Shown: in pieces, positions 4,561-30,266 of the stretch
Position numbering within the stretch: position 1 is the first letter of the stretch
Layout of the letters: every line of letters starts with the position of its first letter
NCBI GenBank assembly: GCA_964645485.1
Contig: CAZXZO010000021.1
Coordinates: 1-31,159 of the forward strand
Length of the DNA stretch: 31,159 bases
Direction: 5' to 3'
Source: an uncultured Candidatus Poseidoniales archaeon
Lineage (GTDB): Archaea > Thermoplasmatota > Poseidoniia > Poseidoniales > Thalassarchaeaceae
Program-made: the position numbers and the translations under genes
Notes under the pieces: generated by a model
Database searches by the model: none
Seen by the model: only the letters and a program-made list of their open reading frames with translations
Told to the model about the DNA's origin: nothing

Positions 4561-7500
4561 TCACAATAGGTCGTCAATCAATGAATCGAGTTCACTATCA
4601 CCGCTAGATGGGCTACTTGATGCAGTGTCACCAAACAAGTCCTCTGAAATTTCTGCAAGGCGTCTGCTAGCATCTGTTGGTGGTGTCTCTACTTGTTGTG
4701 CAAAGCCTGACTGAGCCTCCTGAGTTGTGCTGGTAACTTGAGATTCTCTTGATGCTTGAATCTGGGATGCTGCTGGCATTAAAGTTCCAGCCAAATCAAC
4801 ATCAGGCCCACGTGGGTCTAGACCATCTTCGTTGTCACTCCATCCTTCTTCTTGAGGTAAGCCCCAAGCCGCTTGGGCGAGTTCTAGTGCTTCGTTTCTT
4901 GAACGGTTACTGCGTCCACGGATAGCCAACAGTAGTACTGTTACGATAGCCAGCGAAAGAAGAATTGTGAGTAATGTGTTCATATCAATTAAGTCAAACA
5001 GACCAGAACTGGCTTCACCATCATCGTTACCATCACCGCCCCCATCAGTTGGTGCTTTGTACGGCTTCAATTCCTTTGCTTGCACCAAGTGTTTCCATGC
5101 ATTGCCATCATATGCTGATACTGCGATGAACCAATGTGTCGAATTATCGTATTGGGAAGTCTCATTGAATTCTTCTAATGACCAGAAAGTGCCAATGATT
5201 CCACCCTTAGCCAAATCCGCTTCATCGGTATTTTCGAAGCGTGAATCGCTAACAAAGATTCGATAACTGCGAATATCTGTTCTGACTAGTTCTTGCCACT
5301 CTACTTCAATTGCTCCGCCATCTTCACTCCATTGGATAGTGAAATCAACATCTGGAAGATGACCACCGGGGTCATCGCCTGAATTATCAATTGCTTTTCC
5401 AGAGCCTACGTTCAACAAGTCGCGGTGAGCATTGCCTGATGAATCAACAGGAACAATGGCAATATGAACAGGGATTCCTGACATAATGGCTGCACCACCA
5501 TCAATCATGTCAACAAGAATTGGTTGCTCAACATTTCTATCGAGAATCATAATTGGCTGACGGTGTCCACTACTTGTGTAGGCAATGATATCAGAATATA
5601 CCTCATAGTGGTCTATATCACTGGCATCACTCAATTCAAATTCAACATAAACTGCTGTCCCATTATCATTAGGAACATCTGTCACAACTGGAGCCTGTAA
5701 TCGGTCAGGAGCAATGATATCATCGCGATTATCTATCGGTGTTACCACTACTGAAGGTAAACCAGTCAAGAATGCTGAGCCATACAAATCATGAATTGTC
5801 ACAGTCACTGAAAGAGGAACATTGGGACGAATAGTATCTGGATTTGAATTCTCTACACTATCGCCATCATAGAGGGCTTTTGTCATAGTTAATCCAATCA
5901 ATCCGTCTTGTGAATTTATTGGGTATTGAATGTCCATTTTTATTGCTCCACAAGCACTCACATCATCTTTGCATCTTGCCCAAGTAGCGGCTAAATTATC
6001 CACCGGTTGACTGCTAGCCCAAATGACGTAGAAACCAAAGTCATCAACATCTGTTGCAGCCCAGCTGACATCAATCGCCTCGCCCTTATCTTGAGGGTGG
6101 TCCCATGCTGACAAGTTGTTCACCCTTGCTGGTGGGTCGGTTCCACGGAGGTTCTTCTCAGGTGCTACTTGAACAACTGTGACATTTCCATAATCACCAT
6201 TACCCCATGCATCAAAGGCAACGACAGTTACCCAATACAGGGTGTTATCCTCTAGAGGTGTTGCACCCCAGTGAGAAATGATGGTTGAGTTTGTTGAGCA
6301 ATCAGCAACAATCGTTGCATTAGCAAAGTCTGCTGCACTGGTTGGTGTCATCTCATCGGCGATGGAGGGACGCACAAGAACGGTATGCCACGCACAATCG
6401 TCTTCATTATTTGGCGTCCATTCAACAGTAATTCTACCTCCTTCATCTTCTGGAGTGTCGTATGCTGTAATGTTTTCAACAGGACTTGGTGGAATGCCAT
6501 CATTGATTCCACCTGTCGGCACTACTGGGCCGACAATTGTTGCATTTGCTGGGTCGTGAAGTCCTCCTTCATCAACACAAGTTAATGCAATCCAATACGG
6601 TTGGCCTTTTTCAAGTTGTAAAACCGTACTGTTAGCCTGACCTGTCAAATCGTTGCCTTGGGTTGGCAACCCGATTGCATCCGTAATTTCTTGGGTTACT
6701 GCCCAAATCCTAGTTCCTGCATGGTCGATAGCAGTACACTTACTCCACTCAACATACAGATCACCATCTGCTCCACCATCAGCAGGACCTGCGTTAGCCC
6801 AAGCAGGAGGATTTGGTACCTCGTCGCTGGCTGCTGCTGGACCCATAATCGACGAGGGTTCGCCAAGAGTTCCGTCATCATATTCAATCAGAGCAACTCC
6901 ATAAATATCGACTCCATCAACAATTCGTACACCATCAACAGTAGCAATTTCTGCTAGAGTTGTGGACCACATTGGGACTCGTGCATCAGGTGCTCTCATT
7001 GCAAGGTCGGCTGATGTTGGCATTGAACTCCAGTTACCTTCTTGCAGGTAAATTCGGTAGGCCGCCCAACCACTATCCTGGCTTGGCGTCCACTCAGCAA
7101 CTAATACGCCGCCACCATCATCAGGGCGGTCGAATAAATCTAACAATTCAATTGGTGATTCTGAGCGAGTCCAATCGTACTTGATGCGTACTTCTAAAGT
7201 GCCATTTAGTGGACTCTGTAAACGAATGTGTAAGTCACGGCCTTCTTGTGTTAAGGTGCCACGACGTGCTGCCAATGAGAATTCATTTTCCAAATTGCTA
7301 TTCAATTCCGTAAGATTCCACGTACCTGAATAATTCACACTATGAGACGCCACCCAAATTGCCGCACCTTCTACCGGGCTTGAGAGGGTTAGAGGCATCT
7401 GATGAATTGGGATACCATTCGGTGAGGCACTATTTGCTTGGCTAGGCAGAATTGCTGAATTGGAAGGACCAATCAGAGCAATTCTTTGCCCTGGAGTTGT

Positions 7501-10500
7501 GGAATTAGTAATGTCCCATGAGTTTCCTGAAAAAGTCGCTGACAACGGCTCTGCGCGCCGCATTGATTCTCTTTCAATATCCAAATGATTTGGTGCTGGA
7601 CCAAATCCAAACAACCCATTATCTGCAGTTGTCAACCAAATGCCATTGGCTCCAACGTAGCCACCAGTTAGCGAGAACATGTATTCTTGACGAATTACAT
7701 TATGCTGGCTTGAAGTAATATCAACCCAATCAACACCACCATTACTGAGAACGAGTAAAGTAGTTCCATCACTAATAATATCATTAATTGGCCATGCTGA
7801 AAATGACCATGATGGGTGTCCTGTTTCCATCTGATTAGCACCTGCATTCCAATGCATTAGCGGCTCCTCAAAGGTAGCAACGTGCACTCCCCACCAATCT
7901 GCTGCAATCGCCTTGACGTCATTTGATGGCAACATATCTACACGATACTGTTGCCCTGGCTGCATCGTTGTCAAATCGAATGATGTTGCCCCAGGTCTTG
8001 AAGCACCTTCACCATTATGTGATAAGAATAAAGTGGGACCAATTGATATTGTTGAATTACCACTTGAAATCGTTGTACTTGGCGCGTATGCTATACCGTT
8101 TACACGATTCCCAATCAGTCCAGATTGTGCATTGTATGTTGCAACAACTGAATGGCTTGGAACATCCCAGCGAACCATCCCTGCAGGTGTAGCGAGCATC
8201 AGCTCAGTCCCTTCAACCCAAATCTTGTCAATTATTGGCCCGGGAAGTCCATCTTGAGTCGTGATAGAGTCATCCCATGCTTGGGTAGTAGTATTCCATA
8301 CACCAATGCCACCATAAGTTGCAACCCAAATACGATTGTCATACTCAACAAAGTCACGAACGATGTTTGAAGGTAGACCTGCAAGCAGTGAGCCATCTGT
8401 CCAACTTTGAGTGGTTAAATTGTAAACTTGGAATCCAGCAGATGTTGTTGTTGTGCCCATCAGTCCAATTACTAAATCACTACCAGAACGATAGAGTCCA
8501 TCCATCTGATAATGTAGTGGAACCGGGGTTGCTGAAATTTGACCTGTTGTGATATCAACATGGTAAAGTCCAGCACTAGTTGTAACCCACAAATCGTTGT
8601 TAATTGGCAGAATTTCATTGACGATATCCCAAACGAATGGATACGCTTCAATCCACTCGATTGAGCCGTTTGGAAGTAGTTGGCCATGCAGAATCGAGGA
8701 ACCTGAATACTGTTGAGAGTCATCTGCAGATGTCAACCAAACATTTGTCCCACTGAAAGTGACTTCAAGCATTCTGCCGCTTGATAATCCTGCTAGAATA
8801 TCTACTGCACCTTTGTGCAATCCTGTTGAATTAATGATGTCAACTCTGTTGTATCCAGAATCGCCACCAGGTCTGCCAATAATCCAATCAACTTGGCTGG
8901 TGTTAGAAGGTCTAACCTCCATACTTGATCCCTGAGTACCTACATCAATTTTCATCCCCGAACCAAGTTGTCCACCACTTGCAGCGATTCTAGAAATTCC
9001 TCCAGAGCCCCCATCTTCATCGGTGTGTGAAACCATCAAAACACCGTCATGCCAACGCATTCCATCAGGGAATACTTGGTCTGGCATGATACCGTTTGTT
9101 GTCTCTGTAATAGTTCCTAGCCAGTGACCTGTAGTGTAACTAAATCTTGAAATTCCGACATCGTTGCGTTCAAATCCAACGTAAATTACATCGCCAATTT
9201 CATCACAAGCCAAAGCAACTGCATCATCATCGTCTAATCCTCGATTTTGGGTACTACCCTGTGTCCAACCTGATAACCATGAGTTGGTTTGCAAGTCATA
9301 TCTTGCAACACCACCCTGAGTACCGAAGCCTTGGTATCTAGACATTGCAATATGCATTATATCATTACAAACTTCCATTGAGAAGCCAAATCCAGCAGGG
9401 ATATTTGTGCTTCCTGCTGCCCAACTGCTCCAAGTTTGAGTAGTCCCGTTATACTGGAAAATACGACTATTACGATTCCAACCACTGTTTGCCATAGTAG
9501 TATACCACAGATCATCTCCAACGATTTCAATGTCGAAAATTGTATCCTCTGAATTTGAAGGCAGGCCACCATTGTCTGCTGTAAGAGTAGTTGCCCAAGT
9601 GTCATTATACATATCATATCTAGCAATACCTTCGTATGTTGCGAAGTGAATTAGCCCTTGATACAAATCAATGGAACGAATAGGTCCCACTAATACTGTG
9701 TCATCCCATTCATTGAGAAGATTTCCATTGTAGTCAAAGTGCCGATGAACCTTTTCCCCATAGGATGCAAAGATGTGACAAGCGGAGACATTGAGTGGTT
9801 CACATTCACCAGCGTAAACAGAATTGACCCGTAGAATTGAACCGGTTGCATCTAGAGCGTTACCCCAAGTGTCGTTTGCATGGTCCCAGCGAACAACACT
9901 ACCTGCGTCCAAGCCCCACCAACCTGATGGAGTTACACCAATCCACAACATCCCATCAGGGCCTTCTCCAATTCCGTAAACCAGGCCATTTTGATTTATC
10001 TGTTGGCCAGCATCCAAAGATGAGAGTGTTGTCATATTATCAAGGTCATAGCGATAGATATTATCGTTTGACTGGGTCCCTGCCCGTGCTTCTGAGTAGT
10101 ACAGAACATTACCAATAATTACCAGTTCCCCTGGCTCATTCTGACCGTTTGCTCTGCTGAATGTTTCTTCTACAGTCTCATTCACTAAGTCAATCAAACG
10201 GAGCCCAAAATCACCACCAATCCACACACGATGAGTTAGGCGGTCGGGGATTAGGGTCGTTACATCATTGTCAGTCACTAAATTATTTGAATTCGAAGAA
10301 TCCCACTCTTGAAGCCAGACATCGTTAATCCTGTCATACCGAGCAACACCCATTCCGTTCAAACCGATGTATGCAACATCATTGTATTCGTATGTAGGAG
10401 CGTTCCAAGTAGCCTCACCTGCTACCCACACATCAACAACTGTGTCGTTGACAACATCAATTATTCCAGCACCATAATTGGTTCCAGCATAGAGATTGCC

Positions 10501-12918
10501 ATTGTTGAGAATGGAAACTGCAAATACCCATGAAGAAGGTAGACCTTCTGGATTGGAGTAGTAATTCCAACAATTCTCTTCATGTAAATCTGATAGACGA
10601 TATTGACAAGCACCTGCATTAGTTCCAGCATACAGATAATTTGCATCAGAATCTAGAGCGTAAAAGTTTGAAGGATTGAATCCTCCCTGTGCCTGAATGT
10701 GGGTCCATGAAACTCCGTTGTATCGGTCAGCACCGTCAGCAGTTCCAACCCACATTGAACCGCCGCTATCGCGATGTAATGAGTATACATTATTGTTCGA
10801 GATTCCATTTCCACCTCTCGTTGCCCTCCATGTATCAACCACATCACCCGAAACTCGGTCAAAGATTAACACACCGTATCCGTAAAGCCCGAGGTACATT
10901 TGGTTGCCATCAGTTTCCACCGGCATATATGCTACATTATCCATCCCGGTAGAACGCCAAGAAGACAACAAAGTGTCATTTGTGATGTCAATTCGTAACA
11001 CCCCTTGATTGGATGCTATGTATGCGATTGCAGAACGTGCTGCAACCCCTCTGATATTATTTGTAAAAGAGTCAGACCGCCCGGTTGACCAAGACGATGA
11101 TACAGTTTTGTTGACCGCGTCAACTAAGGTTACACCAGCGTTTGAATGGCCAACTACGATTGTATCAGTAGTTACATCAAAGGCTAGATAATCAGCATCA
11201 TTTGAGTTTAGATTATCACTAATCGCTAGATGAGCAATTTGAGTTCCATTGAAAGCAAAATTATAGATTCCGTCATCACTAGTTGCTACCCAAACTGAAT
11301 TGCCATCAGTTTCTAATGCCTGATTGATAGTACCGGTTTCGATTGGTATTAACCAATGATTCAATTGTTTATCAAATCGGTCAATGACTCCATTTCCAGC
11401 AACCCAAACCACATTGTTTACTTCCAATGCATCATTCATTACTGCACTAGTTGGTCCAGATGCAAGTAACATTGTGGAAACGTGAGTCGGTGGGGTCGAT
11501 GGTTCGAAAAGTGCGAAACTTCCACCACCATCCCCAACAAGAATAGTGTCTACACCTGGTGACCTAACGCCACCGTTTGGCCAAGTAATCAAATCTACTC
11601 CATCACGTACTAAACCAACATCTTGTAGTGCCTTACTAGTAGAAAATGCACCCATAGTCATGTTGTAAAAATGAAGTGTGTCGCCAGCCAAGATGTGTAA
11701 CCATTCCCCACTTTGAGCCATTCCACGTACATCATTTGAATCAAGCCAATTTGCATCTGTCCAAGTGGCTAGCCATGAACTAGTTGCTACATTGTAGCGC
11801 ACGATTCCAGCATCTGCTAATCCAATCATTAGGATACCGTTCATCAATTCTAATTGGACTACATCATCACTTGGTAACGAGTTTTGAGTACTCCAAGTAG
11901 ACTGCCATTGGCTGCTTGAGGTGTCGTAACGCATTACGCCACCACCGTCAGTAGCAAGGTAAACTATGCCACCAACTTCCATCATATCTGTTACAATATC
12001 TAAGCCGGAAGATGGGTTACCAGCAACGCTGATTCCATCGGCTATCAAATTCGCCTCATTGGTACCTGCCCAAACTAATCCGGCTGAATCTGTCATCATC
12101 GCTGTAACTATCTCCGAAATACTTCCCGACATACTCGATTCAATTGAAAATGGACCTGAGAGTTCAGTAGAATCTGTTAGCGACCAAGCGCGGAATTTTG
12201 TCGGGCCATCATCAACTGAGACTAGAAGCATATCATTGAGAGTATCAACAACCATCGTACTCGCTCCGGTAATATTCTCTGCCAACTCTATAACGGGTGG
12301 GTCATTAGTTGCATCCAGTTGAACAACTGTTTCGTTGATCAGCAAATACATCCTACCATCTTCGGGATGAAGTGCTGAGGCACTTACATCAAGAGTAAAT
12401 GGTGAAAAGGTGACATATGCATCTGCGGGCCTCAATGCCTCAACAACCAAATCAGTAACTTCGGCATCACCGGGTAGGAGCCAAGATGCCCCTGCATTAG
12501 CATTAGGGGTTAGCCGAGAGGAGTGAGGGTCTGAGCCCATCAAGTCATTCTGTTGACCAAAACCTCCTAATCCTCGCCAATCCATGATTTGTGCTTGAGT
12601 ATCAACAAATGATAGTTGAGGCTGTTCTACCCAAGTGCCATTTGAGCCGTTAACTCGGACTTCAAATGACAAATTCTCAACAAGTGCACCAGGTGCTAAT
12701 GTGAGGTGTAAATCCCCTTCAGCGAGAACTCCGGTTGCAGGGTCTGCACCAACCGCATCAAGACTTATCCAACCAGTATCATTGGTTCCACCTGAACCCC
12801 ATTCTACCGCATTTCTGCGATTAACCACTGTTTCTAATTGCAAAACTGGAGTCAACGATGCGATTAGCATCAACCCGACTAGAAAAAGGGGGACTGTCGT
12901 TCTATTACTTTGAACCAT
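4561..12918 (-). CDS. Giant (2785 aa) single-pass surface protein: signal peptide, many two-component-regulator-propeller-like blades, about six FnIII-like repeats, C-terminal TM and acidic tail
   Basis: Uninterrupted 8.36-kb ORF with a hydrophobic N-terminus. Recurrent blade motifs (LPSDDVVQL, LPSSWVFAV, LPSNIVRDF, LPGPIIDKI, LPSNDVKAI; WxAT, GVxRYD). D-x-P-x-D-x-G...V-x-W repeats. TM LLTILLSLAIVTVLLLAI. Confidence 0.9.
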   Translation of the reverse strand: MVQSNRTTVPLFLVGLMLIASLTPVLQLETVVNRRNAVEWGSGGTNDTGWISLDAVGADPATGVLAEGDLHLTLAPGALVENLSFEVRVNGSNGTWVEQPQLSFVDTQAQIMDWRGLGGFGQQNDLMGSDPHSSRLTPNANAGASWLLPGDAEVTDLVVEALRPADAYVTFSPFTLDVSASALHPEDGRMYLLINETVVQLDATNDPPVIELAENITGASTMVVDTLNDMLLVSVDDGPTKFRAWSLTDSTELSGPFSIESSMSGSISEIVTAMMTDSAGLVWAGTNEANLIADGISVAGNPSSGLDIVTDMMEVGGIVYLATDGGGVMRYDTSSSQWQSTWSTQNSLPSDDVVQLELMNGILMIGLADAGIVRYNVATSSWLATWTDANWLDSNDVRGMAQSGEWLHILAGDTLHFYNMTMGAFSTSKALQDVGLVRDGVDLITWPNGGVRSPGVDTILVGDGGGSFALFEPSTPPTHVSTMLLASGPTSAVMNDALEVNNVVWVAGNGVIDRFDKQLNHWLIPIETGTINQALETDGNSVWVATSDDGIYNFAFNGTQIAHLAISDNLNSNDADYLAFDVTTDTIVVGHSNAGVTLVDAVNKTVSSSWSTGRSDSFTNNIRGVAARSAIAYIASNQGVLRIDITNDTLLSSWRSTGMDNVAYMPVETDGNQMYLGLYGYGVLIFDRVSGDVVDTWRATRGGNGISNNNVYSLHRDSGGSMWVGTADGADRYNGVSWTHIQAQGGFNPSNFYALDSDANYLYAGTNAGACQYRLSDLHEENCWNYYSNPEGLPSSWVFAVSILNNGNLYAGTNYGAGIIDVVNDTVVDVWVAGEATWNAPTYEYNDVAYIGLNGMGVARYDRINDVWLQEWDSSNSNNLVTDNDVTTLIPDRLTHRVWIGGDFGLRLIDLVNETVEETFSRANGQNEPGELVIIGNVLYYSEARAGTQSNDNIYRYDLDNMTTLSSLDAGQQINQNGLVYGIGEGPDGMLWIGVTPSGWWGLDAGSVVRWDHANDTWGNALDATGSILRVNSVYAGECEPLNVSACHIFASYGEKVHRHFDYNGNLLNEWDDTVLVGPIRSIDLYQGLIHFATYEGIARYDMYNDTWATTLTADNGGLPSNSEDTIFDIEIVGDDLWYTTMANSGWNRNSRIFQYNGTTQTWSSWAAGSTNIPAGFGFSMEVCNDIMHIAMSRYQGFGTQGGVARYDLQTNSWLSGWTQGSTQNRGLDDDDAVALACDEIGDVIYVGFERNDVGISRFSYTTGHWLGTITETTNGIMPDQVFPDGMRWHDGVLMVSHTDEDGGSGGISRIAASGGQLGSGMKIDVGTQGSSMEVRPSNTSQVDWIIGRPGGDSGYNRVDIINSTGLHKGAVDILAGLSSGRMLEVTFSGTNVWLTSADDSQQYSGSSILHGQLLPNGSIEWIEAYPFVWDIVNEILPINNDLWVTTSAGLYHVDITTGQISATPVPLHYQMDGLYRSGSDLVIGLMGTTTTSAGFQVYNLTTQSWTDGSLLAGLPSNIVRDFVEYDNRIWVATYGGIGVWNTTTQAWDDSITTQDGLPGPIIDKIWVEGTELMLATPAGMVRWDVPSHSVVATYNAQSGLIGNRVNGIAYAPSTTISSGNSTISIGPTLFLSHNGEGASRPGATSFDLTTMQPGQQYRVDMLPSNDVKAIAADWWGVHVATFEEPLMHWNAGANQMETGHPSWSFSAWPINDIISDGTTLLVLSNGGVDWVDITSSQHNVIRQEYMFSLTGGYVGANGIWLTTADNGLFGFGPAPNHLDIERESMRRAEPLSATFSGNSWDITNSTTPGQRIALIGPSNSAILPSQANSASPNGIPIHQMPLTLSSPVEGAAIWVASHSVNYSGTWNLTELNSNLENEFSLAARRGTLTQEGRDLHIRLQSPLNGTLEVRIKYDWTRSESPIELLDLFDRPDDGGGVLVAEWTPSQDSGWAAYRIYLQEGNWSSMPTSADLAMRAPDARVPMWSTTLAEIATVDGVRIVDGVDIYGVALIEYDDGTLGEPSSIMGPAAASDEVPNPPAWANAGPADGGADGDLYVEWSKCTAIDHAGTRIWAVTQEITDAIGLPTQGNDLTGQANSTVLQLEKGQPYWIALTCVDEGGLHDPANATIVGPVVPTGGINDGIPPSPVENITAYDTPEDEGGRITVEWTPNNEDDCAWHTVLVRPSIADEMTPTSAADFANATIVADCSTNSTIISHWGATPLEDNTLYWVTVVAFDAWGNGDYGNVTVVQVAPEKNLRGTDPPARVNNLSAWDHPQDKGEAIDVSWAATDVDDFGFYVIWASSQPVDNLAATWARCKDDVSACGAIKMDIQYPINSQDGLIGLTMTKALYDGDSVENSNPDTIRPNVPLSVTVTIHDLYGSAFLTGLPSVVVTPIDNRDDIIAPDRLQAPVVTDVPNDNGTAVYVEFELSDASDIDHYEVYSDIIAYTSSGHRQPIMILDRNVEQPILVDMIDGGAAIMSGIPVHIAIVPVDSSGNAHRDLLNVGSGKAIDNSGDDPGGHLPDVDFTIQWSEDGGAIEVEWQELVRTDIRSYRIFVSDSRFENTDEADLAKGGIIGTFWSLEEFNETSQYDNSTHWFIAVSAYDGNAWKHLVQAKELKPYKAPTDGGGDGNDDGEASSGLFDLIDMNTLLTILLSLAIVTVLLLAIRGRSNRSRNEALELAQAAWGLPQEEGWSDNEDGLDPRGPDVDLAGTLMPAASQIQASRESQVTSTTQEAQSGFAQQVETPPTDASRRLAEISEDLFGDTASSSPSSGDSELDSLIDDLL

Positions 12919-19350: not shown

Positions 19351-19848
19351 ATGACTACACCACATAACATTAGCAACACCGGAGTTGAAGTAATGCCAGA
19401 ACCACCGATGATCCTCAATGATGATGAATATGATGAGGTTGCGAAAGCAATTGTTTTGACCGAAGAATTAGGTGCAAAAGTTCGCAAATTATTCCGTAAT
19501 AATTCGGATGAGGTTGTTCATGATATATCGTGGGAAGTAGATGCTGCGGTTGAAGCGTTAGATGTGTTTGCATCACGCTGGACAATTGAAATTCTAGCCA
19601 CACTCTATATCGCGGGTGAACGACGTTTCAATGAACTACGACGACTTCTAGAAGGTATCTCGAGTAGAACCTTGTCTGATAAACTGACTAGCCTCAGATT
19701 GTCTGGTTTTGTAGACCGTATAGTTGTAGATGGCCCTCCGGTAAAAGTTACATACAAACTTACCGAACATGGAGAACGTTCTGGACGCTTATTGAGCCCG
19801 TTAGTTGCCTACATGAAACTCAACAATGAGAGTGTAAAGAAAAGTTGA
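19351..19848 (+). CDS. HxlR-family winged-helix transcription regulator
   Basis: SRWTIEIL...RRFNELRRLLEGISSRTLSDKL..L...GFVDR......PVKVTYKLTEHG.. Confidence 0.88.
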   Translation: MTTPHNISNTGVEVMPEPPMILNDDEYDEVAKAIVLTEELGAKVRKLFRNNSDEVVHDISWEVDAAVEALDVFASRWTIEILATLYIAGERRFNELRRLLEGISSRTLSDKLTSLRLSGFVDRIVVDGPPVKVTYKLTEHGERSGRLLSPLVAYMKLNNESVKKS

Positions 19849-19861
19849 AATTTCGTCTAAA

Positions 19862-20563
19862 ATGGAGGTCACAGCACCAACACCTACAATAGGGACCGGC
19901 GACAGAAGAAATCCTATGGCACTACTGAAGCAGTTAGGAAGCCGTCATGCCCTAATCGGCGTAGCGGTTGCCGGATTGACTGGTTTGGGTTCATTGACGG
20001 CTGGTATTTTGCCATGGAATTGGTCAATGTCTGGCACCATCAGTTCATCTCACAATCGCAGTTGGGAACACCCATTGAGAAGCAAAATTCTCGATGCTCT
20101 TGACTCAAACCCGGGTATTTGTTACCGCCAATTACAACGTAATCTAAATGTTGCAAACGGCACTTTGCGGCATCACCTTGATGTATTGCAGACACAAAAA
20201 ACGGTTACTACAATGCCAGTAAATGGTAGAACTTGCTATTACGCGGGAGCACCAAGTCAGATTGAGATTCTTAGAGATATGAATATTGAGGATGAGAAAG
20301 CAGCAGAAATGCTTCCGGTTGGACTTTCACAAGTACAACGAGAAGTCGTTACACGCCTTGTCCAAGACCCACTACCAAAATCCCAAGCCTCACTAGCGCG
20401 CGACATTAGTCGTAGTCGTGCCTCAGTAAATAGCGCAGTACTCGTGCTTCGCCGACGAGGGATTCTATCCTGCACCCATTTAGATTTGGCAAACCACCTA
20501 CACGGTCTACGCACTGGTGCACTTGATTACGAGTGGATTGATGAGCGACCAATCGCAGCATGA
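19862..20563 (+). CDS. Winged-helix regulator with an N-terminal hydrophobic segment and two HTH modules
   Basis: Hydrophobic ALIGVAVAGLTGLGSLTAGILPW; HTH1 HPLRSKILDALDSNPGICYRQLQRNLNVANGTLRHHLDVL; HTH2 KSQASLARDISRSRASVNSAVLVLRRRGIL. Starts 13 bp after the HxlR stop. Confidence 0.75.
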   Translation: MEVTAPTPTIGTGDRRNPMALLKQLGSRHALIGVAVAGLTGLGSLTAGILPWNWSMSGTISSSHNRSWEHPLRSKILDALDSNPGICYRQLQRNLNVANGTLRHHLDVLQTQKTVTTMPVNGRTCYYAGAPSQIEILRDMNIEDEKAAEMLPVGLSQVQREVVTRLVQDPLPKSQASLARDISRSRASVNSAVLVLRRRGILSCTHLDLANHLHGLRTGALDYEWIDERPIAA

Positions 20564-20579
20564 ATCCCCAATTCGAAAG

Positions 20580-20681
20580 TGAATTAATAGTGAATTTACT
20601 CACTCTGAGCAGGGTCACACCTACTTAGTAACATAAATCATCGATTCGTGAATGAATTAATAGTGAATTTACTCACTCTGA
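20580..20681. repeat. Perfect 29-bp direct repeat TGAATTAATAGTGAATTTACTCACTCTGA x2, period 73 bp, each containing AGTGA-N6-TCACT
   Basis: Copies at 20580-20608 and 20653-20681, with a 44-bp spacer. Confidence 0.95.
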
Positions 20682-20765
20682 AAGAGGGCGCTTCGCGTTA
20701 AGTAGTCCTGAATCAACAAATAGCAACAATAGCACTTAGAACCGACGGACTTCGCCAATGACTAG

Positions 20766-21848
20766 ATGTTGAGACTCCGCCTTGAGCAACACCCTGCTCC
20801 CACTGGCAAGAAAGATGCTGACATGCTACTCGCATGGCTGCTCGACACATTGGGATTGGTGCGCCGACGAAATGATACCAATTCTACAGATGCCATTCAA
20901 CGCCCACTGCACAGATTGATGCGAGATCATTTGGTAAAAGAACCAATGAAAGGCGTTGATGCAAAGACTTTAGCAGACCAACTCGGAATCAGTATGACTG
21001 CTCTTCACCACCATCTGAAAGGACTTCAATCGGTAAGAATTGTAGCCTCCGAAATTGGTGAAAACGGATGGCAGATGCATCACCTCCGTTGTGGCTCTCT
21101 TGAGGCAGCCATTGACCTACTGCACCTAGAAGTTAGAGGAATTCTCGCCCTACGCCTTGCTCCACTCAAAGAATGGCAAACTGGCTCAGTAACTCAAGAA
21201 GGGGACGATGAAATAGAGAGTTTAGACCTAAAACTGAGTATTTGCGAACCTCGGCCACTACAAGGAAAAGAAGATGAAATTGATGCCTTTCTAAACGACT
21301 TTGGCCTGCGGGGGGAACGTCCAAAAAAACGAAGTGGACAAGATTTAACACGCCTTGTTTTTGAAAAAATGCTGACTGCAAATCACCCTATTTCCTTAGA
21401 TGAGGCGGTCTCTGAATGGGGCGCTACCCGCCCAAGACTGACAAGAACTTTTGACCGATTCAGAGCCGCTGGTTTGGCAGAACGTGTACTACGCCATGAC
21501 CGACTTTCAGTAATTCTCTGGGATGGACTCTCGAGCCAATATACTAGACGGGGGGAAGAGTGGTTACTCACTAAAGGTGGATTGAGTAGATTAGACGACA
21601 AGGTGGTTAAACAGGTCACAAAATCTCTGCGTGAAAACAAATTTGATTCCGAGCGCTGTGCAAAACTTTTCTCTTCGGTGAGCATTGAAGACCAACGTTT
21701 GGCCATTAACCTCCTAGGTGGGAGATTACCATACGGATACAGACTATCGGGAAGTACCGGGGAAGATGTATCGCGCCAAGTTTCACAAAGGGTTGAGAGC
21801 GTATTCAGCCGGTTGAAGCGGGTTGCTTCCACCATTGATGACTTGTGA
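20766..21848 (+). CDS. ArsR-like helix-turn-helix protein with an internally duplicated wHTH module
   Basis: Module 1: LLAWLLDTLGL...DAKTLADQLGISMTALHHHLKGL. Module 2: IDAFLNDFGL...ISLDEAVSEWGATRPRLTRTFDRFRAAGL. Confidence 0.75.
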   Translation: MLRLRLEQHPAPTGKKDADMLLAWLLDTLGLVRRRNDTNSTDAIQRPLHRLMRDHLVKEPMKGVDAKTLADQLGISMTALHHHLKGLQSVRIVASEIGENGWQMHHLRCGSLEAAIDLLHLEVRGILALRLAPLKEWQTGSVTQEGDDEIESLDLKLSICEPRPLQGKEDEIDAFLNDFGLRGERPKKRSGQDLTRLVFEKMLTANHPISLDEAVSEWGATRPRLTRTFDRFRAAGLAERVLRHDRLSVILWDGLSSQYTRRGEEWLLTKGGLSRLDDKVVKQVTKSLRENKFDSERCAKLFSSVSIEDQRLAINLLGGRLPYGYRLSGSTGEDVSRQVSQRVESVFSRLKRVASTIDDL

Positions 21849-22860: not shown

Positions 22861-22961
22861 TAAACCGGTGGAGGGAGTGTCATGCTACTGAACTTACCCG
22901 CTCATTTATCAAAAATTGATGATAGAAGCGGTTATGAATGGTTGTCCGGTCGCCGAGCCGA

Positions 22962-23576
22962 ATGGCTGAACAGAGTGCTCCCCTGCTAGCGTACGAGGAC
23001 TATGAAGCGAACGCTGTGCACATAGGTACTCAGACAAAGAGTAAGGACATGCAGAACTTCATTTCCAAGACTGAAACTGATGGTGCAACAATCCACCTAA
23101 TTGACGTAACTAAGACTGACGAAAGAATCAGATTCGCTGCTAATTTCATCAATAATTACGAGGCGCGTGACATTCTTGTAGTCAGCGCTCGTCAATATGG
23201 ACAGCGCCCGGCTCGCATGTTTGCTCAAGCAATCGGTGCTCGCCAAATAGTTGGCAGATTTATCCCTGGTACTCTTACCAACCCTAATCTACGCACTTAC
23301 ATTGAACCACGAGTTATCTTCGTGACAGACCCGCAAGCAGACTCTCAAGCACTTTCAGAGGCTGTCAAGAGTGGTTTACCAGTAATTGGAATCTGTGATA
23401 CCAATAATCATCTTCGCAACGTTGACTTCTGCATCCCTGCTAACAACAAAGGTCGTAGAAGTCTAGCACTAGTTTACTGGCTGCTATCTCGTGAAATCCT
23501 CAAGGCTCGAGGGGAAACAGATGATGCTACATGGGCACATCACCAAAAAGTTGAGAATTGGGAATCTTCCTTCTAG
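22962..23576 (+). CDS. rps2: 30S ribosomal protein uS2, archaeal type
   Basis: VHIGTQTK, ILVVSARQYGQ, GRFIPGTLTNP, EP...VTDPQAD.QA..EA, CDTNN, IPANNKGRRSLALVYWLL.REIL. The start may be 22938 or 22962. Confidence 0.97.
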   Translation: MAEQSAPLLAYEDYEANAVHIGTQTKSKDMQNFISKTETDGATIHLIDVTKTDERIRFAANFINNYEARDILVVSARQYGQRPARMFAQAIGARQIVGRFIPGTLTNPNLRTYIEPRVIFVTDPQADSQALSEAVKSGLPVIGICDTNNHLRNVDFCIPANNKGRRSLALVYWLLSREILKARGETDDATWAHHQKVENWESSF

Positions 23577-23675: not shown

Positions 23676-24914
23676 ATGATGGGCGATTCTTCAAGTGCTG
23701 GTGACGCCCCTTCAGGTGACACTATTGCTCCTGATGATTCCTTATCATTCGAGGCGACAAGAAGTGATGATGGGATCTGGCGAGATTCAGAAGGCGTGGC
23801 ACTCCCTGTTTCAGCAAGCGACTTAGAGCGCCACGCTTACTGCCCTCTATCATGGCATTTAGCTCGCTCTGGAGTAAAAGGTGCTGGCGATGCCATTGAA
23901 CTTGGTAAACAACGTCACAAAGAAATTGAGGAAGCGATGTCAAACTACCAAAGCCAGGACCTGAAAGCAAGAAAAGAGATGGTCATATGGACGTGGTGGT
24001 TCGCTATTGTGGTAACATTAACCCTTGACACTGCTGCATTTTTCTTCGTGGAAGAGGGAGTGATTGCTGACAGCGACTTTGGCCTTTTTGCCCGTTATCT
24101 TGTCCTTCTAGCCTTGGTTTGGTTAATCTTAGCGATACTTCTCCTATTCATACCTTGGAGAAGATTCCTCGGAACACCTTTCGGATTGGCCCAACCACCA
24201 ACTCCCTCTGAATTTGATATTGTCGACCTTGAACTCTACCTCTTTGAGAAAGATAACTCCAATTCTAGTGGCTGGTGGTATGGTGGGAAAGTTGAGTTCA
24301 CAATCTTACTTGGAAGTTTGACGATTGCTCTGCATGGATTAGCACTTTTTGAGGCTCAAGAGCGCTCAATTGCAACTTTTGTGCTTTTGGTAGCCACTCT
24401 TGGCTGGACATTTATTGCATCTTGGCAACTTCATAAAGGATTACTGGCAAATATTCTTGCTGAAGAAAAAAGCAAGGAACTTGGAATGGACAGTGGTTCG
24501 GTGCTAGCATACAATGATGACTCCAACTCTTCTGAACTGCTGAAAGACGACGTCACGGGTATTAGAGGGCGCCCAGACCAAATCATCATATTCGAAAATG
24601 AGGTTGTTCCTGTTGAACAAAAAACGGGAAAAATTCCTGCACAACCACACTTAAGCCATAAAATCCAATTGTATGCCTACCTTCATCTTGTTTCTAAAAT
24701 AACTAATAATCAACTCAAATATGGAATTCTTCGTTACGGAGAAGATGTGATCCACAACATAGGTTGGGGAGAAGGGGAGAGTAAAGTCTTGATGACTCAT
24801 CTCAATGAAATTCAAAGATTGATGGTTGAAGGTGGCGCTAAAAGAGACCACAATAGGCCAGGAAAGTGCCGAAATTGCTCTCGTCGGCATCGCTGTCCAG
24901 AAGCCCTTGACTAA
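23676..24914 (+). CDS. Cas4-family PD-(D/E)XK nuclease with four Cys Fe-S ligands, interrupted by a four-TM insertion; no cas operon
   Basis: SASDLERHAYCP (C56), G.QRH (H81), GIRGRPD (D301), PVEQK (E314, K316), HKIQLYAY (Q331/Y335), C398-x2-C401-x5-C407. Hydrophobic helices at about aa 103-125, 137-160, 208-225 and 232-252. Confidence 0.85.
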   Translation: MMGDSSSAGDAPSGDTIAPDDSLSFEATRSDDGIWRDSEGVALPVSASDLERHAYCPLSWHLARSGVKGAGDAIELGKQRHKEIEEAMSNYQSQDLKARKEMVIWTWWFAIVVTLTLDTAAFFFVEEGVIADSDFGLFARYLVLLALVWLILAILLLFIPWRRFLGTPFGLAQPPTPSEFDIVDLELYLFEKDNSNSSGWWYGGKVEFTILLGSLTIALHGLALFEAQERSIATFVLLVATLGWTFIASWQLHKGLLANILAEEKSKELGMDSGSVLAYNDDSNSSELLKDDVTGIRGRPDQIIIFENEVVPVEQKTGKIPAQPHLSHKIQLYAYLHLVSKITNNQLKYGILRYGEDVIHNIGWGEGESKVLMTHLNEIQRLMVEGGAKRDHNRPGKCRNCSRRHRCPEALD

Positions 24915-25510
24915 ACAGGGATGCACTCGTCTGGGTCGGCTCGCTCAGGGAATTCAATGCAAGGGCGGATGACTGAAACGGAGACTTCAAACTCGTCGTG
25001 GAAGGAAATTTGGTCAATTGGAGTATCTAATCCATATCCTTGAGCGTCAACTTCTAGTTCCCAAACTCCAAACTCAAAGGGAGGGGAAAATCTCTGTAAT
25101 GGTGGGTAACGGTCGGTTGTGGCATTTTCTTCCCAATATGGAGTGTCGGTATTTTTGTTGGCACCAGGTTCCCATAGCATTGCATGGACGTATCTCACTG
25201 TGCTAGTGATATTACTAGTCTCAACTCCAGCGATTTCGCTGAAATCCATTTGCACGCGGAAGAATACCTGTATTTCTTTGACTTCTGAGTCGATACGAAT
25301 TTGATGTGGTTGTGGATGGAATATAATGTCTGCAGGGTCTGTAGAATCAAAGACATGGTCAAAACCCAATACAACGACATCATCTTTGGTTTCTGGAACA
25401 CCCCTATTCCACTCCATCAACTCTCTGCTTGCAACCAAACCAATACAACCCGAAAAGACACTCATTGAGAGTAGAATGGCGGCGAGGAAGAGGGGTTTGG
25501 CGGCTCTCAT
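24911..25510 (-). CDS. Putative archaeal lipoprotein
   Basis: Basic N-terminus, hydrophobic core and lipobox-like FSGC (Cys22). Stop overlaps the Cas4-like stop by 4 bp (convergent). Confidence 0.7.
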   Translation of the reverse strand: MRAAKPLFLAAILLSMSVFSGCIGLVASRELMEWNRGVPETKDDVVVLGFDHVFDSTDPADIIFHPQPHQIRIDSEVKEIQVFFRVQMDFSEIAGVETSNITSTVRYVHAMLWEPGANKNTDTPYWEENATTDRYPPLQRFSPPFEFGVWELEVDAQGYGLDTPIDQISFHDEFEVSVSVIRPCIEFPERADPDECIPV

Positions 25511-25666: not shown

Positions 25667-28351
25667 TCAATCTTCACTATCCTTGCGGCGGCGTTTTGGG
25701 CGTCGGCGTTTTTCTACTGGCTCTGGTTCAGTCTCTGAAATCTTTGCCGGTGGAGGTGATTCACCATCATCTACTGAGAAGTCTGTGACTTCTTTTTTAT
25801 CCTTCAATACATTACCAACTACGGTATTATCAGGGATTAATTCGACTTCAACCTCTTGGCCGGGTAGTATTCCATCTTCGCCTGTGATATCAAAGATATC
25901 AGCCCGAATATCTGCATCGGATGCGCTTAACTCTACTTCGGAATCTTGCAGATGGCGACGTCCTTCCTTGTCTCCAATGATATCGTCAAGGTCAACCTTT
26001 TCCGTTTCGTGAGCAGACCGCATTGATGTAATCACTAATTCATCTTCTGCCTCTTCTTCGGTCAAATCAACTTCTTGTTGCTCACGGTCCGCTATTGCAG
26101 CATCAATTTCTTGCTCAGCCTCTGTGAGATGTTCATCCCAATCAGATTCTAACTGTTCCTCAGCATATCCCATTTCAGAAATTGCATCGCCGTAGTCTTC
26201 TGCACCACGCACAATCTCATCATCGTCTTCCTCAACTTCTTCCTCAACCTCGTCGTGAGCGATTTCCTTGCGTGTACGGCGCTCATAGAAGGAAGAGACA
26301 TCCTGAACAGTACCGCAATATGGACAGTACTCCATTACATCTGGAATGTTAGAATTACAAGATTCGCAATCATGGAATTGAGATAGCCCTTCAACAAGGT
26401 CAAACTCACAGTATGGGCAGAATTCCTCATCACCTTCAATTTCACCATCACAAGATGGGCAGTAATCGTAAGTTTCTCTCTCACCCTCTTCTGAATCCAC
26501 TCGTGTCAACTTAATTGCTGCTGCTAGAACTATAATTAACAGTAAACCTGCAAATATAAACAACAATGTTGAAGCAGTGAAATTTGATGATTCGGTCTGC
26601 GGACCATCATTACTGGTGGCTGAAATCGACCACGCTGCTGTCCATGTTGCTACAGAACTTCCTGCTGGAACAATATACAACTCAAAAGAACCGGCCTCAT
26701 CAGCCTTGAAACTACAAAGTATAGAATTAGTTCCAACTGATGCTGTGAAATTAACGCTCGTGGTGCTCAATACTTCCCCTTCTCCATGATTAAGACAGGT
26801 GAACACCTCGCTTCCGGTACCCTCGTCTGAAACAATGTCAATGGTGTATGTGTAGGTGTTTCCAACCACCAATGGCGTATGGGCTGGAGTCCAACTTTCA
26901 CTTTCTTGCAGAAAGCGCAAGCGAAGATTGCTATGCAATGTTACTGAACCAAAGGCGGTATTATCGTTGATATTGGAATCGTAACTAATAGCATTGGCCT
27001 CCCAACTTGCACTAAATTGTAATGCCCCTTCTTCACCACTTGGACCCACTACTGTAAATGTGAAAGTACGCTCTTCCCCACCTGGAATCCCCAACCCTAA
27101 CAACGGTTGTAAGGAATTGCCATCAAATGATGCTGATAAATCACCAATCACAGCTATTGAACCGGTATTAATTACTGTAACATCAAAATTAACCTGCTCA
27201 CCTGCTAAAATTGAATCACTCGATGCCGAGGCGTGAGGCGAAACCACCACATTAGGTTCTGGATGGATTGTGATTTGAGTGTCAAGATCATCATTGAACT
27301 GGATTGATTGTGGGACCTGCCTACTTGGGTCTATCCGCACTCTCAAAGTGTGAACACCGGGCTCAAGGGAAGGCATTTGTGACAAGGTCAACTCTTGCTC
27401 CCAATTCTGTAATGTCGCACTCTCGGTAAAGGTCATATCAAAGGAAATAACGCTGGTTTCAAGTTCGCCATCAACTAGATAGATTCCTACGGTTATCGTG
27501 CTATCCCCTGTCCCACCCATTCTGAGGATTTGACCACTAAGAGTCCAAGGACCACTAAGAGTTCCAAGAACTGTCTCTACTGTAATCTCAGGATTTGGTT
27601 GCTGATGATGGAGATAATCAGGACTAGAAAAAACGGTGAATGGTAGAGGAGTTGCGGCATTGTTTCCTGTGTCTGACTCCGTTATCCCATCAGATGCTGA
27701 ATTTGCAATTGCACTAATTTGATGATTGCCTGCCAATGGAGCGTTGAATGAAGTTTGAATTGTAGTTGAAAAACCAGCAAGCAAAGGTGAAACCGCGAGT
27801 TCTGTCAGGGTTGCACCATCAAGTTGAACCAACAAATGTGATGCTGGTGAGTCGAGGTTCCCTTGGTTAGTGACATCGACTGAAAGATTTACAACATCGC
27901 CTTGATGTAAATCCGTTGCCGGTGTGATAGAAATATTGCTGGCAATTAAATCAATTTTACCAGCGACTTCGAACTGTTTAGAAACTGAATTCGTTGAACC
28001 GTTGTGAGTAACAACAAGAACAACTGCATGAGTACCGAATGGCACATCTGACCAAGTACCAGTTACCTGCACAAAACCGCCGCCTGAGATAACTACTGTT
28101 TCAGTATGGAATGCAGTATTCGCTTGACTATCTGGATGTAGTGAAACATCAATATTTGTGATACTTGTAGAAATGTTGTTTGTTAATGTCGCGGTGACTT
28201 CAACATCATCACCTTCGGAAGGAGATGAAGGAGAGATGGCAAGCCCATCAACACTGAAATTGACATCACCCGCATTTGCAGCATAAATCACTGGCACCAT
28301 TAAGAGGAGCAATAAAATTCCCGAAGTGGTGATGGCTGATGCCCGCCCCAT
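25667..28351 (-). CDS. Single-pass surface protein: signal peptide, CARDB/Ig-like domains, TM, cytoplasmic double zinc ribbon, long acidic tail
   Basis: Start moved to ATG 28351 (MGRASAITTSGILLLLLMVPVIYA); the longer ORF overlaps the divergent gene. CARDB patterns DL..SNI...P...GDVVNLSVDVTNQG and E...NN. CPSC/CPYC/CESC/CPYC after the TM. Confidence 0.85.
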   Translation of the reverse strand: MGRASAITTSGILLLLLMVPVIYAANAGDVNFSVDGLAISPSSPSEGDDVEVTATLTNNISTSITNIDVSLHPDSQANTAFHTETVVISGGGFVQVTGTWSDVPFGTHAVVLVVTHNGSTNSVSKQFEVAGKIDLIASNISITPATDLHQGDVVNLSVDVTNQGNLDSPASHLLVQLDGATLTELAVSPLLAGFSTTIQTSFNAPLAGNHQISAIANSASDGITESDTGNNAATPLPFTVFSSPDYLHHQQPNPEITVETVLGTLSGPWTLSGQILRMGGTGDSTITVGIYLVDGELETSVISFDMTFTESATLQNWEQELTLSQMPSLEPGVHTLRVRIDPSRQVPQSIQFNDDLDTQITIHPEPNVVVSPHASASSDSILAGEQVNFDVTVINTGSIAVIGDLSASFDGNSLQPLLGLGIPGGEERTFTFTVVGPSGEEGALQFSASWEANAISYDSNINDNTAFGSVTLHSNLRLRFLQESESWTPAHTPLVVGNTYTYTIDIVSDEGTGSEVFTCLNHGEGEVLSTTSVNFTASVGTNSILCSFKADEAGSFELYIVPAGSSVATWTAAWSISATSNDGPQTESSNFTASTLLFIFAGLLLIIVLAAAIKLTRVDSEEGERETYDYCPSCDGEIEGDEEFCPYCEFDLVEGLSQFHDCESCNSNIPDVMEYCPYCGTVQDVSSFYERRTRKEIAHDEVEEEVEEDDDEIVRGAEDYGDAISEMGYAEEQLESDWDEHLTEAEQEIDAAIADREQQEVDLTEEEAEDELVITSMRSAHETEKVDLDDIIGDKEGRRHLQDSEVELSASDADIRADIFDITGEDGILPGQEVEVELIPDNTVVGNVLKDKKEVTDFSVDDGESPPPAKISETEPEPVEKRRRPKRRRKDSED

Positions 28352-28490
28352 ATACTCTCGAGACCACATACTGCACTTCAACCCTGCCGATTGATGCCGC
28401 CAAGCAGCAATGTCTGCAACAAGGTATTCTACAAGTAGAATACAAAGCAAGGGTTGAAGGCAAAGGTTAGGTGTCCTCAATTTGGTGACC

Positions 28491-30266
28491 ATGCGACGCG
28501 CTGGTGTGATTGTTGCAATTGTCGCAACCTTAATGCTCGCCCTGATACCTATTGGTGAAGTCACTGCAAAGGGTGGAAAAGTATCCGCTCCTACTTTTGG
28601 AACAGGTCCCAGCCAAGGTGAAACTTTAGCGGGAAGCGTGACAATTCTAGTTTCCACAACTAGTGGATTAGATGCTGTGAGCCTCGAAATTTTTGATGGG
28701 TCTACATGGTCTGAGGTAACAAATATCACATCCTCTACTTCTTGGCTTTACAACTGGGATTCATCTTCGGTTAGTGATGGAGGTTACCAATTCCGAATCG
28801 AAGGATGGGCTAGTGGTGTATCTAGTGGTGTAACAAATGGTGCGAACTTTGTAGTTGATAATACCGTCCCGAGTAATCTTGTTTTAGTTACTGAAAACCC
28901 TGATTATGGCGATGGTTTGGCTATTTCAACACGGGCTTGGTATGCTATTCCTAGCACCGGAACACTCTCTTTCACATGGAACGCAAGCGACACAAACCTT
29001 GACCATGCAACCCTTACAGATGTACCCACTCCTGGCTCTCCGTCTAACGATGGGCCTGGTTTTCTCGCTCATAGATGGGACTGGTCGACCGGGAGTTTCC
29101 CTTCTCAAGGAACTTGGGACCCTGTCTTAACTGTCTATGATGCAGCCGGACTTTCCTCAACTGAAACCCGATATATCGGCATTGACACTGTTGGCCCGAC
29201 TGTAGGAACTCCAACCCTTTCGATTAGTAGTGATTGGAACAATGCGCAGAATCTCGTGTTCTCAAATCTGTTCAATGGCGCTTCTGATAATAGTGGCTCG
29301 GGAATCGCTGGCTATGAAGTCAGAGATTCTGCTGATGCCACTTGGAACTCTATCGGCATTGGTGGTTCAGGAACATTAAGCCTACAAGAAGGGGTGCGGA
29401 CAATACAATTCCGTGCGATTGACAATGTTGGCAATCGTGGCACTAGTAGCGATTACACCGTTAAAATTGACCATGTTGCGCCAGTTGCGGGAGGATGGCT
29501 TGTACCAGAACTAACCACGGCTCTGACAGGAACTGTTGACATCACAGTTCAAGCAAGCGATTCTTTGTCTGGAGTTGACTCTTCATTGACCAAAATCCAA
29601 TACGGATTTGACTCTGATGGAGTCGGTCAAACGCCAGATATTACTGGCTCTTGGATAGATGTAGGATATGGATTATCAACTAGCCTCTCATCATCAATTG
29701 ACTGGTCCACCAAACAAGGACAATTCCTCTCACTCCGTACAGTTCTAGTAGATAATGCTAGCAATTCTGACAACTCTGTAACTCAACATTTCATGGTTTT
29801 CCCAAGCCTTGATCTGTCTTGGAATAGTGCTTCTGTGGATCGTTTGGTTGTGCGTGCGGGAACCGAAGGAAAAGTGAATGTGACATCTACTCTTGTGAGT
29901 AATGAAGGATATTCCGGTAGTGTCGTTGTTAGATTACAAACTGCGCCAGCAGACCGAAACAACAACGTTGCTTGGACAACAATTGAGACTAGAACTCTGC
30001 AGCCTGGTTCATTATCGGATTTACAAGAACAATTGGTTTGGAGCATCACGATTTTGAATCCTGGAGAAATCGATATTCGCTTGACTGCTGACTCTTCCGA
30101 TTCAATTTCAGAGAGAGATGAAGCCAACAATGATGCCTACATGGTGGCTCAAGGAGCAGACCAAAAGATGGTTGGTTCAGTGGCTTCGTTTTCACCAACT
30201 TTGCTGATGGTAATCCTTGCTGGATTATACTTTGGATTACAGATTTCTAGATCTAAATCTGAATAA
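28491..30266 (+). CDS. Secreted Ig-like/CARDB domain protein with C-terminal membrane anchor
   Basis: Signal peptide MRRAGVIVAIVATLMLALIPIGEVTA; Ig-like repeats ending DNT.P / DT.GP / DHVAP; TIQFRAIDNVGN; CARDB-like SERDEANND; C-terminal TM. Start 28482-28491. Confidence 0.85.
   Translation: MRRAGVIVAIVATLMLALIPIGEVTAKGGKVSAPTFGTGPSQGETLAGSVTILVSTTSGLDAVSLEIFDGSTWSEVTNITSSTSWLYNWDSSSVSDGGYQFRIEGWASGVSSGVTNGANFVVDNTVPSNLVLVTENPDYGDGLAISTRAWYAIPSTGTLSFTWNASDTNLDHATLTDVPTPGSPSNDGPGFLAHRWDWSTGSFPSQGTWDPVLTVYDAAGLSSTETRYIGIDTVGPTVGTPTLSISSDWNNAQNLVFSNLFNGASDNSGSGIAGYEVRDSADATWNSIGIGGSGTLSLQEGVRTIQFRAIDNVGNRGTSSDYTVKIDHVAPVAGGWLVPELTTALTGTVDITVQASDSLSGVDSSLTKIQYGFDSDGVGQTPDITGSWIDVGYGLSTSLSSSIDWSTKQGQFLSLRTVLVDNASNSDNSVTQHFMVFPSLDLSWNSASVDRLVVRAGTEGKVNVTSTLVSNEGYSGSVVVRLQTAPADRNNNVAWTTIETRTLQPGSLSDLQEQLVWSITILNPGEIDIRLTADSSDSISERDEANNDAYMVAQGADQKMVGSVASFSPTLLMVILAGLYFGLQISRSKSE

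Follow-up and report, generated by a model that had tools for sequence, protein, structure and literature searches.

A Cas4-like nuclease split by transmembrane helices in an uncultured Poseidoniales archaeon: architecture, distribution and co-occurrence with type IV pili

Introduction

What might be the role of a Cas4-like nuclease whose fold is interrupted by a membrane anchor and whose gene lies away from CRISPR loci? The question is raised by positions 23676–24914 (+) of the window, i.e. the whole stretch of 31,159 nt analysed here, which hold an ORF of 412 amino acids encoding a membrane-anchored Cas4-like nuclease in a fused form with four transmembrane (TM) helices. Its source belongs to the Poseidoniales (Marine Group II, MGII), which are reported to outnumber all other planktonic archaea in surface waters (PMC6461757). 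The role of the solo-Cas4 proteins is unknown (PMC5704561), and it has yet to be explained how archaea that lack ComEC take up and process DNA (PMC10133366). The family to which this protein belongs offers a concrete candidate in both cases; irrespective of function, it is unusual for a predicted Fe-S nuclease to be assembled from two halves that each have their own anchor, or around a TM hairpin present as repeats. No published account of a TM-split Cas4 was found in the open-access literature.

Gene and conserved motifs

The initial annotation of this ORF had described all hallmark residues of Cas4 as intact, and each was found at its position: C56, H81, D301, E314, K316, Q331xxxY335 and C398/C401/C407. 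The protein thus has the PD-(D/E)XK catalytic triad and the QxxxY motif of the Cas4 family. It has no cysteines other than C56, C398, C401 and C407, and this set of four (one plus three) is invariant across the family alignments. The C-terminal part of the ORF was matched by the Pfam profiles PDDEXK_1 (PF12705; 39.5 bits against a cut-off of 22) and Cas_Cas4 (PF01930; 27.7 bits against 22.7). The equivalog profile for CRISPR Cas4, TIGR00372, scored 55.7 bits, below its cut-off of 65.

Along the gene (all features on the plus strand), the N-terminal nuclease arm (residues 44–100, 23805..23975) carries the first Fe-S cysteine, Cys56 (23841–23843), and His81 (23916–23918). It is followed by a first TM hairpin (23982..24155) consisting of TM1 (residues 103–124), a short acidic outside loop and TM2 (residues 137–160), the latter with a conserved tryptophan, W149. 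An acidic cytoplasmic linker of low model confidence (residues 164–203, 24165..24284; pLDDT under 50) leads to the second hairpin (24291..24428), which is formed by TM3 (residues 206–225) and TM4 (residues 232–251) and is a diverged copy of the hairpin unit repeated in the family. The catalytic core (24501..24911) contains D301 (24576), E314 (24615), K316 (24621), Q331/Y335 and the remaining Fe-S cysteines, Cys398/401/407 (24867–24896). Upstream lies the syntenic gene for ribosomal protein S2 (rps2, 22938..23576, +), and downstream a convergent, likewise syntenic gene for a predicted lipoprotein of no known family (24911..25510, −), which stays in place where the nuclease has been deleted.

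A chimeric assembly as the origin of the TM part was considered and ruled out, since many of the 927 homologues retrieved are colinear with the protein over 94–100% and the same neighbours are found across genera.

Fold and membrane topology

The initial annotation had placed four TM helices between the first cysteine and the catalytic core. This was borne out by a hydropathy scan, in which four hydrophobic segments were seen at approximately 103–124, 137–160, 206–225 and 232–251, and by an AlphaFold2 model built from 59 homologues (pLDDT 82.9, pTM 0.80), in which these segments form long helices. Residues 26–412 of the model align with residues 5–201 of Cas4 (7mi4_A) with a Z score of 19.3 (187 aligned, rmsd 3.3), and a second Cas4 structure (8d3l_I) gave Z 19.2. 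Because this alignment runs across the whole Cas4 domain, the N-terminal arm and the catalytic core are, as modelled, one Cas4 domain with the helices looped out; the earlier proposal of a Cas4 fold closed across a TM bundle is in this respect upheld by the prediction. For the form with eight TM helices found elsewhere in the family, a model-based co-fold of the halves matched Cas4 with Z 17.6.

The bias of Lys and Arg towards the inner side of the membrane placed both termini in the cytoplasm in 178 of 179 members with an even TM number, in agreement with the earlier argument that an even count returns the two halves to one side. Among 71 split pairs (described below), the same bias put the relevant ends inside in 70 N-halves and 60 C-halves. 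The nuclease domain is accordingly predicted to lie inside the cell, unlike known competence nucleases. The assembly of Fe-S clusters is cytoplasmic, which agrees with this topology. The architecture as a whole is well supported by the sequence analysis and the models, from which the cytoplasm-facing orientation is also predicted. A soluble insert or an odd TM count, either of which the initial annotation had held to be fatal to its proposal, is dismissed: by a simple hydropathy scan rather than a dedicated predictor, 279 of 292 full-length proteins carry 2, 4 or 8 TM helices, and by length the 13 proteins with odd calls belong to, or adjoin, the classes of the even forms.

The acidic loop (164–203) had been suggested to act as a sensor or channel partner. 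As the nuclease is cytoplasmic by charge bias, this loop is internal; it is also disordered and long only in MGII, and the role of an external sensor is therefore abandoned. The outside loops of the protein are only about 12 and 5 residues long, with a range of 4–15 residues in the family. A role of the TM bundle as a channel is likewise not supported, with forms having two helices, or one helix on each of two proteins, being common. No channel-like fold match was seen with a low-confidence model of the whole eight-TM protein, which returned generic helical-bundle matches alone (Z up to 10). The family alignments show conserved polar residues and a tryptophan within the TM helices. A homodimer prediction for residues 24–412 scored 0.00, which is evidence neither for nor against a dimer.

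Architectures within the family

The survey for a split architecture that the initial annotation had called for revealed a large family, with two-gene forms and forms of differing TM number that the annotation had not foreseen, as it had not foreseen a cytoplasm-facing nuclease. Six TM helices were found in no full-length member, and the insert consists of one homologous hairpin present in 1, 2 or 4 copies. Compared with one another, hairpin profiles outscored reversed controls in 36 of 36 pairs (medians 48 and 16); the two hairpins of the MGII form are too diverged for a direct match to each other.

Two genes encode the nuclease in 71 of 80 loci, the groups represented being Methanotrichaceae (with Methanothrix), Methanofollis, Thermoplasmatales, Anaerolineae and others. 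The N-half, of 80–95 amino acids, carries the first Cys and the His and ends in a helix, while the downstream protein of 170–185 amino acids consists of an N-terminal helix and the catalytic core. The gene break is at the outside loop, leaving one anchor on each half, with one cluster ligand on the first protein and three on the second. A soluble fused form is rare (L053, P0243) and nests among the split forms. The catalytic D/E/K residues are intact in 419 of 424 family sequences.

In a quick tree based on 137 columns, which does not order the architectures, TM number shifts repeatedly, and changes between the split and the fused form are seen even inside Methanofollis. This tree placed 118 family rows, two of them anchorless, on one side of a branch and the sampled soluble Cas4 proteins on the other, with support that is not strong (SH-aLRT 92). 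The weak matches retrieved were soluble CRISPR Cas4 or other Cas4-like proteins. No viral copies of the nuclease were found in a search with one pattern.

Several variants were also noted. Nine C-half genes (L048, L072, L084, L088, L097, L104, L106, L108 and L115) have no ATG, GTG or TTG at the start of the TM-coding part, and their frame appears to open at an Ile codon, which suggests a non-standard start codon in C-half genes of the Thermoplasmatales type. Three proteins (L032:1495–2322 and P0147, both of the MGIII-like genus g28, and P0231) keep the four cysteines and lack the catalytic Asp, with the His also lost in the g28 pair; these variants are probably inactive. One genome, G460, holds both a fused four-TM copy and a split pair (L301, L305). 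The eighth-ranked ESM Atlas match to P0001 was a bacterial cluster of 356 amino acids, mostly from Planctomycetota (score 0.93, 193 shared features), which could represent a further group of membrane-split nucleases.

Genomic context

The earlier remark that neither cas1 nor an array is nearby was confirmed: no cas1 was found in the source genome, which is 82% complete, and no CRISPR array is present in the window. The syntenic neighbours are non-cas across genera, and no defence-island context was found at the family loci. Databases tag family members as CRISPR-associated Cas4; the many so labelled in contexts without CRISPR are misannotated.

No conserved partner gene was detected, the neighbours being housekeeping and lineage-specific. 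A fused or adjacent helicase was not found at the examined loci, an XPB-like helicase lying two genes from the nuclease in Methermicoccus only. The 412-residue protein gave no Pfam match for a GIY-YIG or DUF4041 domain. At 27 loci of the Methanothrix type, the next gene downstream of the split pair encodes a thermonuclease-like protein with a signal peptide (one example being L080:4913–5569); this neighbour, named by the ESM Atlas only and missed by the Pfam and PDB profiles, is predicted to be secreted and has altered catalytic residues.

Distribution and selection

The family was detected in 159 of 221 genomes of Thermoplasmatota, in 9 of 131 genomes of a phylum sample around Methanothrix and in 21–27 of 101 Chloroflexota; cultured carriers include Methanofollis and Methermicoccus. 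In a class-wide sample, 139 of 141 genomes of the sister family carry the nuclease, nearly always in single copy, as do 40 of 43 genomes of the MGIII-like family. In the source organism's own family it occurs in 30 of 113 genomes, seven small-genome genera having none (0/83), and a search of five genomes from these genera with the family profile gave no match. The rps2 and lipoprotein genes flank the nuclease in other genera as well; in four of the seven nuclease-less genera rps2 directly abuts the lipoprotein gene, so that the nuclease has been cleanly deleted. Within the genus, dN/dS was 0.07 for the whole nuclease and 0.03–0.06 for the helices, compared with 0.06 for rps2.

Co-occurrence with type IV pili

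Because the neighbours are housekeeping and lineage-specific, gene loss was used to probe function. In all, 59 genes are present both in the source genome and in the covered part of an MGIII-like genome (1.15 Mb of about 1.3 Mb) and absent from a 97%-complete nuclease-less relative; about 12 of these 59 are pilus-related, namely two sets of ATPase and TadC, pilins and KaiC-like ATPases. In the class sample, all nuclease-positive genera have an orthologue of the pilus ATPase, which all seven negative genera lack. Two of these seven keep only FlaI, the archaellum motor, and the source genome has the nuclease and pili and no FlaI match; a link to the archaellum in Poseidoniia is thus not supported.

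The pattern extends to the phylum. Among the 221 genomes sampled, 156 have both a PilB-type ATPase and the nuclease, 47 have neither, 15 have the ATPase only and three the nuclease only. The nuclease is in this way nested within the distribution of the ATPase in Thermoplasmatota, with 47 of 50 ATPase-less genomes also lacking the nuclease; the three nuclease-only genomes are incomplete assemblies, each with another pilus-type ATPase match. Matched contrasts in the presence and absence of the two genes occur within three families, and small MGIII-like genomes (0.7–1.6 Mb) keep both nuclease and pili. Most of the lineages that lost both have small genomes and lose many other genes too, and related genomes do not count as independent cases. 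In one genus the nuclease and PilB-type ATPase genes stand head to head (G441:C10, G415:C33), which could be chance.

In Chloroflexota, a TadA-type ATPase is present in 21 of 21 genomes with strong nuclease matches and in 70 of 101 overall, the carriers being kin, and ComEC (91/101) is too widespread to be informative. In the sample centred on Methanothrix the link is reversed, 7 of 9 nuclease carriers having no pilus-type ATPase. Neither DprA nor SNase was found in five Poseidoniia genomes, an SNase-like neighbour occurring in the Methanothrix-type loci only. A link to TctA in Poseidoniia was also considered and is not supported, as TctA does not track the nuclease.

In the source genome (G000), two type IV pilus assembly loci and a cluster of pilin, KaiC and probable prepilin-peptidase genes were located at C2:127754–132862, C19:18583–21553 and C27:13045–17948. 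All of these loci are lost in the seven small-genome genera of the source family, and this pilus loss may itself be undescribed.

Relation to known systems

In solo-Cas4 proteins, Cas4-family members with four Fe-S cysteines are encoded outside of CRISPR loci, inherited vertically and kept under purifying selection (PMC5704561), and each of these properties was also observed here. The main text of that study makes no mention of a TM insert, of a gene split in two or of repeated hairpins. Hudaiberdiev et al. (2017) found a monophyletic solo-Cas4 group in many Chloroflexi (PMC5704561), which may include the split form. The best fold matches are CRISPR Cas4 proteins (7mi4, 8d3l and SSO0001, 4ic1; Z 19), with the same layout of catalytic and Cys residues; the protein differs from these in its sub-threshold TIGR00372 score, its insert of 150 residues with TM helices and its lack of cas1, cas2 and an array. 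The nuclease domains of AddB/AdnA, Dna2, Exo5, MGME1 and ACE1 have a related fold (Z 9–13). In AddB, Dna2 and Exo5 a single N-terminal cysteine and three C-terminal ones are tied together across an insert by an iron staple. All of the related nuclease domains named are soluble and mostly linked to a helicase or an Argonaute, whereas the present protein has TM helices as its insert and no fused or adjacent helicase.

SNIPE (Saxton et al., 2026; PMC13190303) is likewise membrane-bound, cytoplasm-facing and placed to cut entering DNA, a placement that for the present family is a prediction. SNIPE, however, combines GIY-YIG and DUF4041 with a variable N-terminal anchor and a patchy occurrence, whereas the present family has a PD-(D/E)XK Fe-S fold, a conserved internal anchor and the distribution of a core gene. 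The 412-residue protein is consequently a member of the Cas4 family fitting the definition of solo-Cas4, and is neither a CRISPR Cas4, a SNIPE protein nor a helicase-nuclease. For this membrane-anchored split form a role is put forward below as a testable hypothesis.

Possible function

Our preferred reading, held tentatively and at somewhat less than an even chance, is that of a membrane-tethered, cytoplasmic Fe-S exonuclease of Cas4/AddB type that processes DNA imported by a route linked to type IV pili. By analogy with the Cas4 family (PMC5704561), the protein would bind an Fe-S cluster and degrade single-stranded DNA in the 5'–3' direction from a free end. From its anatomy, the helices are expected to pair within the membrane, and the cluster and active site of the split form could therefore come together nowhere but at the membrane, at a distance from the bulk of the chromosome; the TM bundle would be an anchor or docking module and not a channel. 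The least certain part is the substrate, suggested to be imported DNA by the co-occurrence with pili and by transformation in M. maripaludis, which requires pili and a secreted thermonuclease (PMC10133366). Imported DNA might be either trimmed to 3' single-stranded tails for recombination by RadA or degraded to nucleotides as food. The M. maripaludis machinery (a type IV-like pilus, the TctA-like MMJJ_13030 and the thermonuclease MMJJ_16440; PMC10133366) resembles the present case in the pilus link in Thermoplasmatota and the thermonuclease-like neighbour in Methanothrix. It differs in that its thermonuclease is secreted, the nuclease described here being predicted as cytoplasmic, and in that TctA does not co-vary with the latter.

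Several observations count against uptake through pili: the Methanothrix-type carriers without a pilus-type ATPase, the missing partner gene (together with DprA and SNase in the five Poseidoniia genomes, and with TctA untracked), the existence of a soluble fused form, and losses occurring mostly in small-genome lineages that shed many genes. The M. maripaludis transformation screen also gave no Cas4-annotated gene, going by annotation (PMC10133366). It is rather doubtful, though conceivable, that the family is a missing cytoplasm-side part of pilus-dependent DNA uptake in Thermoplasmatota including marine groups II and III, in which the pairing of TM helices where DNA is taken up would put together the Fe-S staple and the 2-, 4- and 8-TM forms would be interchangeable builds of one membrane module.

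An unlikely but substantial alternative is a housekeeping nuclease for DNA repair, the processing of chromosome ends or RNA turnover, whose place of action would be controlled by its membrane tether, much as RNase Y is anchored; the co-loss with pili would then be a by-product of streamlining. It is consistent with a vertically kept, single-copy gene that is syntenic beside rps2 and dus, under constraint close to that on rps2, with housekeeping neighbours in other lineages, with retention in pilus-less Methanothrix-type genomes and with fold matches that include AdnA, AddB, Dna2, Exo5 and MGME1. Such a gene has nonetheless been lost by clean deletion from all 83 genomes sampled in seven genera, while small MGIII-like genomes keep it along with their pili; all three within-family contrasts match pilus loss, and a helicase is neither fused nor adjacent.

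The initial annotation had proposed that the enzyme handles DNA as it crosses the membrane, either for uptake or in destroying injected viral DNA. Action at the membrane stands, and a role in DNA entry has gained indirect support from the pilus co-loss in Thermoplasmatota; defence as the lead explanation was given up in view of a near-universal, single-copy gene with a dN/dS of 0.07 and housekeeping neighbours. A more specific version, a SNIPE-like gatekeeper at the pilus base or another entry site that destroys viral or plasmid DNA on entry and becomes dispensable once the pilus receptor is lost, is distinctly unlikely. The combination of membrane anchor and cytoplasmic nuclease is the general design of SNIPE (PMC13190303), the co-loss fits the pilus as a receptor equally well and the tree shows recurrent changes in TM copy number, but a presence of 139/141 contrasts with SNIPE in at most about 10% of the genomes of a clade (PMC13190303). 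The TM helices are moreover as conserved as the core, purifying selection also acts on the outside loops, which are short, and neither a defence island nor GIY-YIG or DUF4041 was found.

Least probable is a signal-gated split enzyme, in which TM-helix pairing in response to a partner, membrane stress or Fe-S availability would switch on nuclease assembly, for example for programmed DNA breakdown or the release of DNA to neighbours: the prevalence of the two-gene form with its ligands divided one and three, the conserved polar residues and Trp in the helices and the apparent lack of a standard start codon in some Thermoplasmatales C-half genes would suit it, but there is no sensor domain, the outside loops are very short and, since split and fused forms interconvert within Methanofollis, being split is not essential.

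Other features of the window

Besides the nuclease locus, the window contains three consecutive genes for HTH regulators (HxlR, HVO_0163-like and double HTH) at 19351–21848 (+). Upstream of the double-HTH gene at 20766, two direct repeats of 50 nt, 86% identical and 73 apart, lie at 20559–20681 with an AT-rich near-palindrome, a weaker copy being present at 16671; these are possibly transcription-factor sites. A protein of 2785 amino acids encoded at 4561–12918 (−) contains beta-propeller (PorZ/Reg_prop) repeats and is probably a large protein of the cell surface. Two opposed genes for CARDB surface proteins, one with a zinc ribbon and an acidic tail, occupy 25667–30266; their ORFs overlap by about 250 nt, and the start at 28729 is therefore probably over-extended. 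At 1337–4500 (−), a fused chorismate-binding and GATase gene adjoins a class IV aminotransferase gene, forming a pabAB/pabC-like pair. The contig end (1–460) contains a 12-nt tandem repeat and short repeats, and probably belongs to a minus-strand coding region of repetitive sequence.
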